A stretch of 37,612 bases of DNA from a virus (lineage: Duplodnaviria; Caudoviricetes). The position numbers and the translations under genes were made by a program. Position 1 is the stretch's first letter; every line of letters begins with the position of its first letter. Below are positions 23,458 through 29,116 of this stretch, in pieces. Location: positions 1-37,612 of IMG/VR virus record IMGVR_UViG_3300043036_000344; one strand, written 5' to 3'. The notes under the pieces are model-generated. The model searched no databases and was not told where the DNA came from. It was given only the letters and a program-made list of their open reading frames with translations.

Positions 23458-24054
23458 TTATTCTGTTAAACTTTGTTCAACAGCTTGTTCTAGTTCGGCT
23501 TCACGTTGCATGGCTTTAACAAACTTGGCAACGCGTTCGATTACTTCTTCACTAGTCAACCAAATGTCTTTGTTGTGCAACATAGATTGAATTTCTAGTT
23601 CAGTTAAAAAGTTGCGGTAAACTTCTGATAAAAAGTTTTCACTCCAAGCACGCTCAAATTGCAGCTGGTCATACATTTCACCACCTTTGCCAAACACACC
23701 AGCTGAGTAGTTGTGAAACATAAATAACGAATGTGGCGTTACTTCAAACTCATGACCGCTTAAAAAGATCATGGTTGCGGCACTCATACATGCACCTTCT
23801 ACTGAAGTAGTAATAGTGCCTTCACATTCACCCATTACGCGTAGGAACTGTAGTGCGGTATAAAGATCGCCACCGCAACTGTTGATATAAATCTTGATTG
23901 AATCGTTTGAACGAGCATTACGAATTGTGTCGAACCAGTCAATGTAGTGTTCTGCTTCTAAGACTTCACCACTTAGGTAGAATTCATAGCTGTTTGCTAG
24001 ATTCTTGGTAAATGTTGCCGGTTGGTCAAGTTTAGGGTCAAGTAGGTTATGCAT
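23458..24054 (-). CDS. clpP: ClpP-like protease subunit
   Basis: IYINSCGG, GACMSAAT (catalytic Ser), FMFH, DIWLTSEE. Confidence 0.85.
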   Translation of the reverse strand: MHNLLDPKLDQPATFTKNLANSYEFYLSGEVLEAEHYIDWFDTIRNARSNDSIKIYINSCGGDLYTALQFLRVMGECEGTITTSVEGACMSAATMIFLSGHEFEVTPHSLFMFHNYSAGVFGKGGEMYDQLQFERAWSENFLSEVYRNFLTELEIQSMLHNKDIWLTSEEVIERVAKFVKAMQREAELEQAVEQSLTE

Positions 24055-24072
24055 CTAGTTATTGTTATTAAG

Positions 24073-24480
24073 TGCCGGTATTCTGTTACGAGGAACCGGC
24101 GAAACCCTAGTCAGTTTTTAGGCTGCCAATGCGAAAACGTTGTCGTTAGCATTTATTGTGTTTTGCGTCTGCGACCGGAACCTCCAGTCCTACGGCTTCT
24201 ACATTGCCGAGTTGTCCACGTATTTACTCTTAGCCTAATCGATTACCGGAGCAGGCCCATCATAAGGAATCTTCTTCTAGTTGTTTTCTAATTTGTTCGG
24301 TATGGTAAACAACTATAGCATGGAAGTTATCTTTGTTAAGAGTATTCATAAACTCCTTAAAAAGTCCTTCGACATGATCTTTGTCAATATACTTAAACTG
24401 TAGCATCAAACTTCCTTATGGTGGACCTGGCGGGAGTCGAACCCGCGTCTTAAACTCTTTTCTGTCGGCTTCATACAACC
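24073..24480 (-). ncRNA. ssrA: circularly permuted (two-piece) tmRNA
   Basis: Acceptor piece about 24480-24419 ends GACGCGGGTTCGACTCCCGCCAGGTCCACCA; coding piece starts GGGCCTG at 24258 (G3:U70); tag frame AATAAAT-GCT AAC GAC AAC GTT TTC GCA TTG GCA GCC TAA = ANDNVFALAA. Confidence 0.9.
24260..24406 (-). CDS. 48 aa ORF inside the tmRNA intervening segment
   Basis: TAAGGAAG RBS; MLQFKYIDKDHVEGLFKEFMNTLNKDNFHAIVVYHTEQIRKQLEEDSL. Confidence 0.5.
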   Translation of the reverse strand: MLQFKYIDKDHVEGLFKEFMNTLNKDNFHAIVVYHTEQIRKQLEEDSL

Positions 24481-24586
24481 ATATTTTAGCACACTACCCA
24501 TGCTGGGTGCTCCCAGTTACCCGCGGAAGGTGTGTGTACAATTACTCCGCATCTATTTATTAAGTGGCAAGTAGTGTGCTAAAATA

Positions 24587-25637: not shown

Positions 25638-25757
25638 TAAAACTAAGAATAATTAGATTAGAGATTTGCCCGTGCATCCAGCGGCATTCAGGGAATCGAA
25701 CCCTGATCGTTTTTATTAACAGTAAAAGAAGTAACTAATCAAGTCGCTATAGTTTTA
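25638..25757 (-). ncRNA. TROVE-associated structured RNA, copy E (carries a tRNA-like insert)
   Basis: AAAACUA-UAGCG..GAUUAG-UUACUUC..CUAAUC..AUUCU-UAGUUUU. Confidence 0.7.
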
Positions 25758-25761
25758 AAAA

Positions 25762-25840
25762 TGGCTCCGTATATAGGATTCGAACCTATCTAGTCATTGA
25801 TTAACAGTCAAGTCCGTGCGCCTAGCTCGGATTCTACGGA
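25762..25840 (-). tRNA. tRNA-Asn(GTT)
   Basis: Loop CTGTTAA, G73, CCA. Confidence 0.85.
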
Positions 25841-26095
25841 ATATTTAACTCTAGTGCCCGGTGCGCCATCCCCGAGTGAGCTTCAGTACAGGAGAAAGAC
25901 CGTACTTACACACTATAGCGCGTTTTCACTAGAATTAAATATGCTGGTTACTTTATCCAGCGCCAATTAACGAATGGCAGTTCAATTGCTCGGACGCCCG
26001 ACAGGAACAACCCTTGTCATAACCGTTTACGTCTAGCGGACCTAAGGTAGGTCTTGGTGGATAACAGATGCCATAGCACCCGCTTCTCCATAACT

Positions 26096-26170
26096 TGGCG
26101 GCTTCAAGGGGTAACGATCCCCTTCTTTAGCAGTGACAGTGCTATGTGCGTCCATGAACACTTTGAAGCC
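26096..26170 (-). tRNA. tRNA-Asp(GTC)
   Basis: Loop CTGTCAC, G73, variant T-loop ATCGTTA, CCA. Confidence 0.85.
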
Positions 26171-26175
26171 TTTGT

Positions 26176-26259
26176 TGGTACGAGTAATCGGAGTCGAACC
26201 GATACGCACTAGGCGGCGAGTTTTAAGCCCGCTGGGTCTACCAATTCCCCCATACTCGC
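26176..26259 (-). tRNA. tRNA-Leu(TAA)
   Basis: Loop CTTAAAA, long variable arm, CCA. Confidence 0.9.
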
Positions 26260-26318
26260 ATTGTTGTTTTCAAAGAATAATTATAACTGATTAAGCATCG
26301 TAATGCAAATCTAAATTT

Positions 26319-26392
26319 TGGCACCGACCCAAGGACTCGAACCTTGACTGCTGATTTTGGAGACCAGAGTGCTGCCATTACACTAGGAGGGT
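26319..26392 (-). tRNA. tRNA-Trp(CCA)
   Basis: Loop CTCCAAA, G73, CCA; two acceptor mismatches. Confidence 0.78.
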
Positions 26393-26559
26393 ATATATTC
26401 TAGCAATGCTTCTTGCGTTTCCGAATTATTGCGAGTAATTTTATCTTGTTCACTATCCGATTCATGCGATAGTTTATCGCGATTAAAGATTGCGTCCCAA
26501 CGATCAGCATATTCTTGATCGCTAACGCTAAGTGGTCTTGGTGACGAACCTTTTGACAT
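26383..26559 (-). CDS. 58 aa hypothetical protein
   Basis: TAAGGA RBS; MSKGSSPRPLSVSDQEYADRWDAIF...; stop lies inside the tRNA-Trp 5' end. Confidence 0.6.
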   Translation of the reverse strand: MSKGSSPRPLSVSDQEYADRWDAIFNRDKLSHESDSEQDKITRNNSETQEALLEYIPS

Positions 26560-26575
26560 ACGTTTCCTTATTAAA

Positions 26576-26678
26576 AAGCCCTTGAATAATATTAACAGTG
26601 GCTAAGTTCTCACTTAACCTGAGTTAGCCGCGGTTGGGCGGCTTTGGAAGATGTATCTGTTAAAAGCGCAAAGGGCTT
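26576..26678 (-). ncRNA. TROVE-associated structured RNA, copy D
   Basis: AAGCCCU-UUGCG..UUAACAG-AUACAUC..CUGUUAA..AUUCA-AGGGCUU. Confidence 0.72.
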
Positions 26679-26758
26679 AGATTTGTTGAGGAATAAGGCG
26701 ATACGGGGACGTGATTTCACCATAAGAAGTATCCGTATCTAACACCATCAACAAATCT
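26679..26758 (-). ncRNA. TROVE-associated structured RNA, copy C
   Basis: AGAUUUGUUGA-UGGUG..GAUACGG-AUACUUC..CCGUAUC..AUUCC-UCAACAAAUCU. Confidence 0.75.
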
Positions 26759-26824
26759 AAGCCCTTAGCTTAGAGCCTCACTTTTCTACCACCTGACTGG
26801 CTACAGGCTAGGGTCGTGAGTAGT

Positions 26825-28135
26825 TTATACTGCTTCCAGTTCCACTGCTTGGATGTAGTCGATAATTGCTTCGGAGAAGCCATTAATCTCTAGCCAAGCA
26901 CCGTGGTTAATACCGTGTTGGTATGTTGCTACGTTCACAACATAACCTTTGCCCCGTGGAGCACCTGGACGGTCATAGCTTTGTTCGTCAGTAAACACAA
27001 TGCAACGATCGTAAGAGCTTTTTGCATGGATTTGATTCATAGCACTACCCAATTGAGTACCGCTGTGATGCTGCGAATTTGAAATTGCTTCACGGAGAGC
27101 GAATCCGCGACGAGGTGGTACTAGCACAGCAAGATTACTAAAGCTATAGATCTCTACTTGTTCGCATACTTCACGACACAGCATGGCCAATGCTGCTGCC
27201 GCATCAAAGCGATCGAGATCTGATTTTTCAGACACTTTGGAGCCGAACATAGAGCCACTTACGTCGATTACCAAAACAGTCTTACCAGGAATTTTCTGAT
27301 GAGTCGCTAAACTGCGAAACATCATGGTTTCTAGCATGTCTTCGTATTGTGGCACAATACGAGCCGCCGCGATGTAGCGGAATGGCAGGACACGGCTAAC
27401 GTCAACGGTAGATGCATACTCGCGGATAAGGGAGTCCGCTACACCACTGTCGCGCATATTACGCAGATTACGTAAGAAAGCTAGTGCGCCTAGTTTCTTC
27501 TCAGTCATAAGACGAGTAAACGTACCACACTTATCTGCGCCGCTTGACAATTGAGTTTCCCAGGTATCTGGGGTTTCCAACTGATCTGAGGCAATACGCT
27601 GGAACAGCGCTGTTTGCTCAGCATTTTGCGGTTTAGGGTGAGACAAAAACATTACATCACGCAGTTTGATTGCGTGTGAGTTTTTATTCCACTTGGCAAG
27701 CTGGTATTCATTAAACTTGTTAAAGCAGGCTGCAAGACCTTTTTTAACTTGATTAGATACAGCAGACTTGCCTTCTTGCCAATAAATTGACATGAACTCA
27801 GACATTTCGTCTGGACGCTGAATTACATCAGTCAGCGCTTGTGCTTGCAGTTTTCCGTGTCGAGCAAGCTCGCGGGCAAGCAACAGAGGAATGTGACGAA
27901 GTTTGAATTTCGTACGAGCCTCCAAAGCTAGAGCTGATACCTTTTGAGGAGCAACTTTAGCTACCAATTCACGAACCAATTCAGCGTGAGTTTTACCATC
28001 AAGGTAGAACTGGTTTTCCCAAAGCATGGAAGCTAAGGTTAAACGCTTTAGTTGGCGTTCTGCATTGACTTGTGGAACACGAGTGCCCACAGAGTTGGTT
28101 GCTGAAACACGCACAACGCGATTGATCGAAGACAT
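26825..28135 (-). CDS. TROVE-domain Ro60/Rsr-like RNA-binding protein with vWA domain
   Basis: WENQFY, LRHIPLLL, QRPDE, FNEYQLAKW, LRDVMFLSHPKP, PDTWET, AFLRNLRN, LPFRY; MIDAS DVSGSM..T..TDEQ. Confidence 0.92.
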   Translation of the reverse strand: MSSINRVVRVSATNSVGTRVPQVNAERQLKRLTLASMLWENQFYLDGKTHAELVRELVAKVAPQKVSALALEARTKFKLRHIPLLLARELARHGKLQAQALTDVIQRPDEMSEFMSIYWQEGKSAVSNQVKKGLAACFNKFNEYQLAKWNKNSHAIKLRDVMFLSHPKPQNAEQTALFQRIASDQLETPDTWETQLSSGADKCGTFTRLMTEKKLGALAFLRNLRNMRDSGVADSLIREYASTVDVSRVLPFRYIAAARIVPQYEDMLETMMFRSLATHQKIPGKTVLVIDVSGSMFGSKVSEKSDLDRFDAAAALAMLCREVCEQVEIYSFSNLAVLVPPRRGFALREAISNSQHHSGTQLGSAMNQIHAKSSYDRCIVFTDEQSYDRPGAPRGKGYVVNVATYQHGINHGAWLEINGFSEAIIDYIQAVELEAV

Positions 28136-28156
28136 TGGATTTTCCTTTTGTTTAAT

Positions 28157-28224
28157 AAGTAAGAATTAGGCGAAACAGAGAGTTTATCATTACAAGTGAA
28201 GTAACTGTTTCTTTCACTATACCT
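28157..28224 (-). ncRNA. TROVE-associated structured RNA, copy B
   Basis: AGGUA-UAGUG..GAAACAG-UUACUUC..CUGUUUC..AUUCU-UACUU. Confidence 0.72.
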
Positions 28225-28407
28225 AAATTAAAGAACCTGGTGAGAATATTCTAGCACAGGGCGGAAGCGTTAAAGGTATCCAAGAACGCTTGCCTTAAAC
28301 TTAGGCAGGAGCAACGAAGCCTGCTGTTTGTTGCGATTTTTAAAGCGATAGTTTCATAGTATGATGATGTACCTGAAGTCTAATCACTACACTAAGTTCT
28401 TTAATTT
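28225..28407 (-). ncRNA. TROVE-associated structured RNA, copy A (large insert)
   Basis: AUUAAAGAACUUAGUG-UAGUG..CAG-GUACAUC..CUG..AUUCU-CACCAGGUUCUUUAAU; begins at the predicted transcription start. Confidence 0.68.
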
Positions 28408-28415
28408 AAGTATTA

Positions 28416-28444
28416 ATTATATATGAAATTAGCAAAGAGAACAA
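28416..28444 (-). promoter_or_regulatory. promoter of the TROVE/ncRNA unit
   Basis: TTGTTC-N17-TATAAT; start near 28409. Confidence 0.7.
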
Positions 28445-28499
28445 GAGTATATTTACTAATGTTATATGTTTGATTACTCGTTCTCTTTGCTAAGACATA

Positions 28500-28540
28500 A
28501 TTATATGATATTTTGACTTTTAAAACAAGTCAATTTTTTT
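28500..28540 (-). promoter_or_regulatory. second tandem promoter upstream of the TROVE unit
   Basis: AAAAAAATTGAC-TTGTTT-N17-TATAAT; start near 28493. Confidence 0.7.
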
Positions 28541-29041: not shown

Positions 29042-29116
29042 TGGTTGCCACGGACAATTCCGAGATGTCGACCTATCGCTTATCAAGCGAGTGCTCTGCC
29101 TCTGAGCTACGCGGCA
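29042..29116 (-). tRNA. tRNA-Ile(GAT)
   Basis: Loop TTGATAA, variant T-loop CTCGGAA, CCA. Confidence 0.8.

Follow-up and report, generated by a model that had tools for sequence, protein, structure and literature searches.

The window analysed here, the whole 37,612-nucleotide virus record IMGVR_UViG_3300043036_000344, is a fragment of the genome of a T5-like lake phage in which a gene for a Ro60/Rsr protein is accompanied by five copies of one RNA scaffold, all within 1.2 kb of the gene and on the same strand. Judged from sequence, these repeats are very probably Ro60-bound Y RNAs of the YrlA type. Each joins a shared handle, which probably docks the RNA on the phage Ro60 ring, to an insert that is exchanged between relatives, and the hairpin known in YrlA as the 'variable arm' is an anticodon arm in exact tRNA register. 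A role of these arms as decoys for host tRNA-cutting enzymes is possible, and the explanation preferred here as a whole, namely YrlA-type Y RNAs whose Ro60-docking handle presents exchangeable, unchargeable tRNA pieces as decoys, is offered tentatively. The T5-like affiliation is seen in genes for polymerase A, a primase, a helicase, a split NAD ligase and a recombination nuclease, and the completeness of the genome is estimated at 36%. The window also holds 23 tRNA genes and a two-piece transfer-messenger RNA (tmRNA) of betaproteobacterial type, and the Y RNA locus lies within the T5-like tRNA cluster. The gene and the five candidate Y RNAs are given below, with the evidence in parentheses.

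26825..28135, minus strand: Ro60/Rsr protein of 436 amino acids, TROVE plus vWA with a DxSxS motif (Pfam, homologues)
28225..28407, minus strand: putative Y RNA A, handle plus a 106-nucleotide multi-hairpin insert (28365-28260), not tRNA-like (pattern, orthologues)
28157..28224, minus strand: putative Y RNA B, handle plus a 19-nucleotide insert (28197-28179), anticodon hairpin only (covariance model, orthologues)
26679..26758, minus strand: putative Y RNA C, minimal form (covariance model, relatives)
26576..26678, minus strand: putative Y RNA D, handle plus a 51-nucleotide two-hairpin insert (covariance model, relatives)
25638..25757, minus strand: putative Y RNA E, handle plus anticodon arm, T arm and D-like hairpin (covariance model, relatives)

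The 436-residue protein matches TROVE (7e-11) and vWA_Ro60 (3e-6) in Pfam, and D291, S293 and S295, which form the metal-ion-dependent adhesion site motif of the vWA domain, are invariant across 32 homologues. The only solved relatives found are the phage phiLo Ro60 entries 9KOP and 9L5Y (E 3.5e-18), and the full-length match to 9KOP (residues 33-432) suggests a ring-shaped fold. Among the neighbouring genes, no protein partner common to most TROVE loci was found.

A preliminary description of this DNA had proposed five units with a shared scaffold. All five are present, A being the weakest, and the stem pairs quoted there (e.g. GAAACAG/CUGUUUC) are correct. Written as a pattern tuned to these five, the proposed motif has exactly five matches on both strands of the 37.6 kb (28389, 28219, 26747, 26671 and 25749). 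A covariance model built from 34 handle copies of other genomes, none from the window and several from close relatives, finds C at 66.3 bits, B at 52.8, E at 21.1 and D at 20.1, the next match scoring 14.8; RNA A is not recovered by this model. In a weight-matrix-plus-pairing scan, trained on 190 viral copies (four from the window), B to E score 37.7-49.1 and A scores 26.7 with its 3′ half wrongly chosen, while the 20 simulated windows that served as the null reach at most 28.2. The inner stem of A is interrupted and absent from the minimum-energy fold. Its place as the weakest member is accepted because 17 of the 18 pairs of its outer stem form and clear orthologues exist (scores of 38.6-39.5 in the related loci L003, L004 and L007). 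Folding z-scores are -3.1 for A, -1.1 for B, -5.1 for C, -5.2 for D and -2.0 for E. Units A and B abut, as do C and D. A search of Rfam at gathering and E-value thresholds places no family on A-E.

As drawn from 766 distinct copies, the handle consists of an outer stem, followed by a near-invariant unpaired U, R:Y and G:C pairs and an internal loop. Next come an inner stem of 7-8 pairs, the last of them G:C, and NUACUUC; the 3′ strands, which contain UUC, follow the insert. The stems are paired in 76-99% of copies versus 39-68% when shuffled (92% for the near-invariant G:C). In the 34-sequence alignment, 90.5% of the cells are paired against 62.6% when shuffled and 41-52% when slid, the sequences having been picked by a scan that rewards pairing, and two-sided change is seen at 15 of 17 pairs. 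The proposed covariation of the stems is borne out in both sets. The bulged helix of classical Y RNAs, earlier called not evident, is present in altered form with a U bulged, since the R:Y pair covaries although the scan, which rewarded pairing at six positions of each handle stem, gave it no reward: among 463 copies it is G:C in 375, A:U in 77 and U:A in five, and in the window it is A:U in A, B and E, G:C in C and U:A in D. The 5′ motif has the family consensus U-G-G-Y-G-A/U-A-G, which fits a GNCGAAN0-1G-like motif. Exact matches occur in relatives, and the window copies carry the variants AGUGAU, AGUGAA, GGUGUU, UGCGCU and AGCGAC with no exact match. After the inner stem, YUAY is UUAC in B and E, with the variants GUAC in A and AUAC in C and D; its first position is U in 77% of the 190 copies.

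The handle is linked to TROVE genes well beyond the window. A motif-first search, with a pattern combining the handle and a T loop, picked out 121 viral loci; the 80 with flanks up to 4 kb were counted and the other 41, with flanks of only ~300 bases, excluded; a TROVE gene lies within 4 kb in 57 of the 80, on the same strand in 56, and three of the 23 loci without TROVE have further model matches. For background, a TROVE homologue occurs in 95 of 50,697 phage records. When the search started from the protein, at least one copy was found at all 21 close viral loci, at 65 of 68 further viral ones, at 75 of 80 from metagenomes and at 79 of 80 from bacteria (240 of 249 in total), with 797 sense copies against a single antisense copy and mostly two to six per locus. 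The bacterial set comprises the best 80 of 589 loci, mostly from Acidobacteria and Alphaproteobacteria, and is independent of the weight-matrix scan, which was trained on viral copies only. With 79 of the 80 carrying the same arrays, the earlier reading of a phage ribonucleoprotein is not supported. Among cultured phages, arrays are found in CcrColossus (eight copies by eye, six by model), crAss001 (five by eye, two by model), Xanthomonas phage 10KY502B (five), Rhizobium phage Y65 (seven), Microcystis phage Mvi-JY20 (two) and phage G (at least five).

Some of these arrays have peculiarities of their own. In 18 of the 80 bacterial loci (L149-L228, e.g. L190 233-2026), the array has a gene for a BCS1-like AAA ATPase nearby. 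Acidobacterial copies (L154 834, L155 2486, L161 599, L163 1994 and L166 1942) share a conserved class of non-tRNA inserts of 105-140 nucleotides. In crAss-like arrays (L025 4991, which is crAss001, L028, L050, L079, L082, L102 and L106), the insert of the last copy is AU-rich and includes a conserved stretch of purines that looks like a ribosome-binding site.

What had been put forward as a candidate new family has the handle of YrlA-type bacterial Y RNAs. YrlA is defined by the GNCGAAN0-1G motif, a conserved YUAY and a T-acceptor-D module (Chen et al. 2014, PMC4201824), and the table of that paper gives one YrlA per phage in the 22 rows covered here. The published CcrColossus YrlA is one of the eight copies of its array, and the published YrlA of phage G has the same core. 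In L003, L005 and L007, slot B matches the Rfam YrlA model over its full length (28.5-35.1 bits), with T arm, closed acceptor and D arm present. These scores and those of the published YrlAs of phages G and Bxz1 against RF02553 (36.2 and 32.5 bits) fall below the gathering threshold of 69 bits, as do the copies with full inserts, the best relative reaching 55.9 bits; no window copy (A-E) gives a match to RF02553. The complete T-acceptor-D module is found in no window copy, E having T and D-like arms without an acceptor. Because none has the full module, the window RNAs are best regarded, on their sequences, as Y RNAs with a YrlA handle and not as YrlA in the strict sense, with a role probably like that of YrlB.

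The register of the arm is fixed by the T loop. In the 81 copies with the commonest spacing, where the T loop starts 24 nucleotides after the handle, counting tRNA positions from the T loop without regard to the bases of the anticodon loop gives C32 in 69%, U33 in 84%, a purine at 37 in 89% and A38 in 77%. Pairing at 27-31:39-43 reaches 75-88% versus 36-63% in shifted registers, and 47 of the 81 loops (positions 32-38) equal a genuine tRNA loop. The stem of the arm has five pairs, its 5′ strand starting in the UUC of the handle. Genuine loops are matched by 13 of 48 copies in the class one base shorter, which is mixed, and by none of 24 in the next class in this register. Strict anticodon hairpins number 234 among 800 copies, against a mean of 18 (maximum 28) with shuffled inserts, and are found in 56 of 86 viral clades and also in bacteria. 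As in tRNA, G37 goes with G36 (31/49 versus 24/202), with the same trend by clade. In the YrlA seed sequences themselves, a seven-nucleotide loop in the same register was seen by eye in five of seven, being absent in Salmonella and Pseudomonas.

Within the window, the loop of B (CUUGUAA, 28196-28190) is that of Thr(UGU) and the loop of E (CUGUUAA, 25722-25716) that of Asn GUU. In E, the arm is followed by a 5-nucleotide variable loop, a T arm (25705-25689) and a D-like hairpin (25686-25667) without an acceptor stem, and the D-like stem shows compensatory changes among relatives. In C, the handle UUC can pair with GAA around a seven-nucleotide loop (UUAUGGU, 26725-26719) at the position of the anticodon loop, which is non-canonical; of the 22 C-type loops found in close relatives, only one is identical to a genuine tRNA loop. 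A reading of GGUGAAA in C as an rRNA or Phe loop was dropped, the GAA being explained by this pairing.

That interchangeable inserts sit on a constant handle, as the preliminary description had inferred, is seen by comparison of relatives. One and the same slot, with the same handle, may contain a complete YrlA insert, an insert of E type or nothing but a hairpin, and slot D in several relatives holds an anticodon hairpin in place of the two-hairpin insert. Two RNA runs, each from a different study, have contigs in which 52 other bases stand between 28197 and 28177 in place of the 19-base insert of B; these limits are the boundaries of the handle, so that exchange takes place at the handle boundary. 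In a third RNA run, B is unchanged and the A next to it differs. Close relatives also have a second arrangement (T, acceptor, D, anticodon) in which the loop is kept and the triplets change. A sixth slot, absent from the window, was noticed at L001 4582, L002 4554, L003 4554, L011 4582 and others; its insert has T arm, acceptor, D arm and anticodon arm in that order, the loops being those of Ile, Lys, Asn, Met or Thr. Two of the YrlA-type RNAs with an anticodon arm are annotated in GenBank as tRNA-Thr and tRNA-Gln.

Change is concentrated in the triplet. Eleven near-identical, hairpin-only orthologues, a family defined by four bases on each side, have an entropy of 1.8 bits at position 34, 1.3 at 35 and 0 at 36-38. 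Relatives of E show GUU, UUU, CUU, GUG or a degenerate loop, while the loop of the adjacent tRNA-Asn is constant in 6/6 relatives with a tRNA-Asn at that place, and crAss-like orthologues switch among UCU, CCU and UUU. The changing triplets show freedom from decoding and fit diversifying selection as well as drift. For A, C and D, no sign of antisense guides was found: blastn of A and of C plus D against E. coli genomes gave no match, a weak test given that the host is not E. coli, and mimicry of rRNA or host RNA and antisense action were set aside for these RNAs. Single-stranded CCA motifs recur at the edges of A- and D-type inserts of close relatives; CCA is found in 126 versus 106 of 221 inserts without a T arm, one of 64 triplets in related sequences and hence a hint only.

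Around the array, two promoter candidates and one tRNA-like gene complete the features of the locus.

28500..28528, minus strand: distal promoter candidate of sigma-70 type, TTG..-17-TATAAT (sequence; similar box in 11/15 relatives)
28416..28444, minus strand: proximal promoter candidate, TATAAT ending 9 nucleotides before RNA A (conservation)
25765..25841, minus strand: gene resembling tRNA-Asn(GUU), its D arm being odd, immediately upstream of E (sequence; tRNA-clan match of 25.8 bits)

For the candidate promoter earlier placed before A, 13 of 15 relatives keep the TATAAT and its spacing to A; it is absent from the list of a consensus scan, which found seven promoters against 5.9 expected and is uninformative alone. 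The same scan gives an overlapping alternative register of the distal candidate at 28533-28505. Between the two candidates and overlapping the proximal -35 box lies a 72-nucleotide hairpin of -23 kcal/mol (28424-28495, minus strand), and a similar inverted repeat of altered sequence is found between the promoter boxes in most relatives, possibly as a leader RNA or a promoter switch. Sequence related to the window is present in freshwater runs, those with a small share being left out and per-contig depth not being used for ranking genes. Parts of the locus of a close relative (gene ~97% identical) are represented in metatranscriptome contigs of four RNA runs from freshwater, although carry-over of DNA is possible. 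One contig spans 26883-28472, and the contigs reveal neither RNA ends nor strand.

Elsewhere in the cluster, ARAGORN missed two tRNA genes, the Asn(GUU)-like one at 25765-25841 and a second at 29045-29116 (minus strand), recognized by Rfam alone at 45 bits. Two structured non-coding stretches between tRNA-Asp and tRNA-Asn (25935-26092 and 25842-25935, minus strand) are each kept in five to nine related loci, and no credible Rfam family was found for either. The tRNA-Trp (26319-26392, minus strand) has two adjacent acceptor-stem mismatches and is entered by a 58-codon reading frame from 26559. The two-piece tmRNA occupies 23458-24529 (minus strand) and is followed by a Clp protease gene.

How the tentatively preferred explanation would work can be set out in a few steps. 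Transcription would start at the promoters ahead of A and inside the tRNA cluster, the transcript would be trimmed into single RNAs, and the Ro60 ring would bind the handle and protect each of them, so that the unchargeable tRNA pieces on the inserts could bait host anticodon nucleases. The decoy reading would cover B (a Thr UGU hairpin), E (an Asn GUU arm plus a T/D elbow) and perhaps C. Charging of the window RNAs is ruled out because the acceptor ends of the inserts are closed or absent. It is likely that some factor reads a tRNA-shaped loop, and anticodon nucleases would be the best candidate for it. They are favoured because they are common host defences, because T5-like phages counter them from the same cluster and because bacterial Rsr operons respond to anticodon cleavage. 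The T5 tRNAs are described as countering a tRNA nuclease that targets Lys(UUU), Thr(UGU) and Asn(GUU) (PMC12409363). Hughes et al. suggested YrlA as a competitive inhibitor and found Salmonella YrlA uncut (PMC7790460).

Several observations weigh against decoys. RNAs A and D fall outside the reading, and a canonical anticodon loop is present in only two of the five window RNAs. B and E bear two of the three main target anticodons of AriB, which may be chance. The AriB context U36-A37-A38(-U39) is found in 66 of 133 loops versus 174 of 595 genuine phage tRNAs when pooled; by clade the values are 0.46 versus 0.39 (interval -0.11 to 0.22), the difference is not significant with clades set at 70% or 60% protein identity, and tuning to AriB was rejected as a general claim. 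About a quarter of the loops match no genuine tRNA loop in the set and some loops have A34, which fits drift; the variability of the triplets suits a lack of constraint as well as selection, and a cluster test on them is biased by construction. Nor is an anticodon displayed universally, since in some bacterial copies, opened in the D loop, a plain hairpin takes the place of the anticodon arm. Finally, bacteria carry the same arrays, phage RsoM2USA has a TROVE gene without any such RNA within 4 kb, and the reported escape of T5 relies on resistant tRNAs, not on decoys (PMC12409363).

The tethering of Ro60 to other proteins, demonstrated for Y RNAs in Deinococcus and Salmonella (PMC4201824), is the model for a second explanation, somewhat unlikely and close behind the decoy reading, in which each Y RNA is an adaptor that brings its own host partner in RNA handling (PNPase, as in RYPER, or tRNA-binding factors) to the ring and RNA decay is redirected or damped in infection, the tRNA parts being protein-binding surfaces and not bait. 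Phage phiLo Ro60-Yrl lowers PNPase activity by ~71-76% in vitro (PMC12135203), and adaptors would accommodate the non-tRNA inserts A and D. RtcB, encoded within 3 kb in 14 of the 80 bacterial loci, agrees with such a role, but it is found in none of 89 viral loci nor in the window, and adaptors alone leave unexplained the seven-nucleotide loop with U33 and a purine at 37, the coupling of G36 with G37 and the inserts reduced to a hairpin. Decoy and adaptor functions can both hold, for different RNAs.

The truncation series that runs from the full YrlA of L003, L005 and L007 to the bare hairpin of the window recalls the decay of tRNA genes, and a tRNA-dimer origin has been proposed (10.1101/312249). 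If the handle alone mattered, by gating or stabilizing Ro60, the inserts would be relics of tRNA genes repeatedly captured in tRNA clusters, and the occurrence of non-tRNA loops and of A34 would be expected. This is unlikely: the loop geometry is kept across the viral clades counted above and in bacteria, one family shows change at positions 34-35 and none at 36-40, and several distinct RNAs are retained per genome. Of 133 13-mers, only 15 have a match among the tRNA genes in the loci (host tRNAs being outside this set), which speaks against relics and gives no support to loops copied from the phages' own tRNA genes.

A third explanation takes the in-register anticodon arms and the tmRNA and Clp protease gene 1-2 kb from E as signs of an action on the ribosome, whereby the mimics would enter empty A sites codon-specifically, e.g. 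after tRNA loss, and bring Ro60 to stalled ribosomes, acting together with the phage tmRNA and ClpP. It is very improbable, the hairpin of B standing four nucleotides from a stem likely bound by a 49-kDa protein and the triplets drifting freely, unlike those of the adjacent tRNA. That the handle is an RNase III-type cleavage signal releasing the inserts and unrelated to Ro60 can practically be dismissed, for although the abutting A-B and C-D need cutting, the linkage to TROVE is strict, the stems are short and interrupted, and Rsr binds this type of 5′ motif in known Y RNAs (PMC4201824).

The purpose of the tRNA-like domain of bacterial Y RNAs has been a question since 2014, and the YrlA whose crystal structure was solved, that of Salmonella, is without the hairpin present in five of seven seed sequences. 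The anticodon-arm reading and a handle model for the arrays of cultured phages make the role of the domain directly testable. They also bear on annotation: the Rfam YrlA threshold misses these RNAs, and some appear as tRNAs in GenBank. Should the decoy reading hold, a new kind of phage counter-defence would be at hand. Its widest form, in which Ro60/Y-RNA arrays are widespread, reprogrammable decoys that jam tRNA-cutting defences or toxins, their loops retuned by point change and cassette exchange, is rather unlikely; if true, an RNA-based counter-defence would be common to T5-like, crAss-like and jumbo phages and to bacteria.

Among known systems, the Thermus phage phiLo has a phage Ro60 with the adjacent Yrl1 and Yrl2, for which binding and PNPase damping were demonstrated (PMC12135203). 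Its Ro60 protein is distant from that of the window, the available text of the paper describes no anticodon display for Yrl1/Yrl2, and the core motif of the handle was not found in its primer supplement. The Ro60-like gp130 of Bas63, encoded at a tRNA cluster of the phage, has been measured to counteract the Ppl defence (10.1101/2024.10.10.617714); it was rejected as a direct precedent and belongs to a different family, only its vWA part aligning weakly and no handle lying nearby. A jumbo-phage TROVE protein with a tRNA-like partner has been noted as an RNA-repair platform (PMC7824862), and nothing relevant to the arrays was found in the literature on crAss001. Animal and Deinococcus Y RNAs share the terminal stem, one-base bulge, conserved pairs and internal loop seen here; in place of their GGUCCGA helix, the bulged base is U, U-R-G-Y-G stands against UUC-Y and the UUGAC strand is missing. 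The covariance model covers one branch of YrlA handles and does not find the Y RNAs of Bxz1, whose handle has GGCCGA and GGUUACCUC.

YrlB, Yrn2 and other secondary bacterial Y RNAs, proposed to broaden the range of Ro60 complexes, occur several per locus, some without a tRNA-like domain (PMC4201824), and A, C and D resemble them in role. Known secondary Y RNAs, found by pull-down, number two to about five and have no shared model, whereas one handle model here finds up to eight. In the literature searched, the handle consensus, arrays above about five copies and anticodon arms in YrlA were not found described, although reviews or figure supplements might hold them; measured against it, the handle, the TROVE arrays of two to eight copies, the exchange of inserts and the anticodon arm with changing triplets appear to be new. 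Closest of all is YrlA (RF02553), with which the window-type RNAs have in common YUAY and a same-strand site beside Rsr, and whose 5′ GNCGAA-type motif they carry in variant form. The YrlA papers describe the first hairpin as a variable arm and place the Ro site on the 5′ strand only (PMC4201824; 10.1101/312249), and Wang et al. (2018) equate the hairpin with a class II variable loop, YrlA being said to lack an anticodon loop (10.1101/312249). Unlike published YrlA, the RNAs described here come in arrays, their handle has a defined, covarying 3′ strand, and their first hairpin is the anticodon arm.

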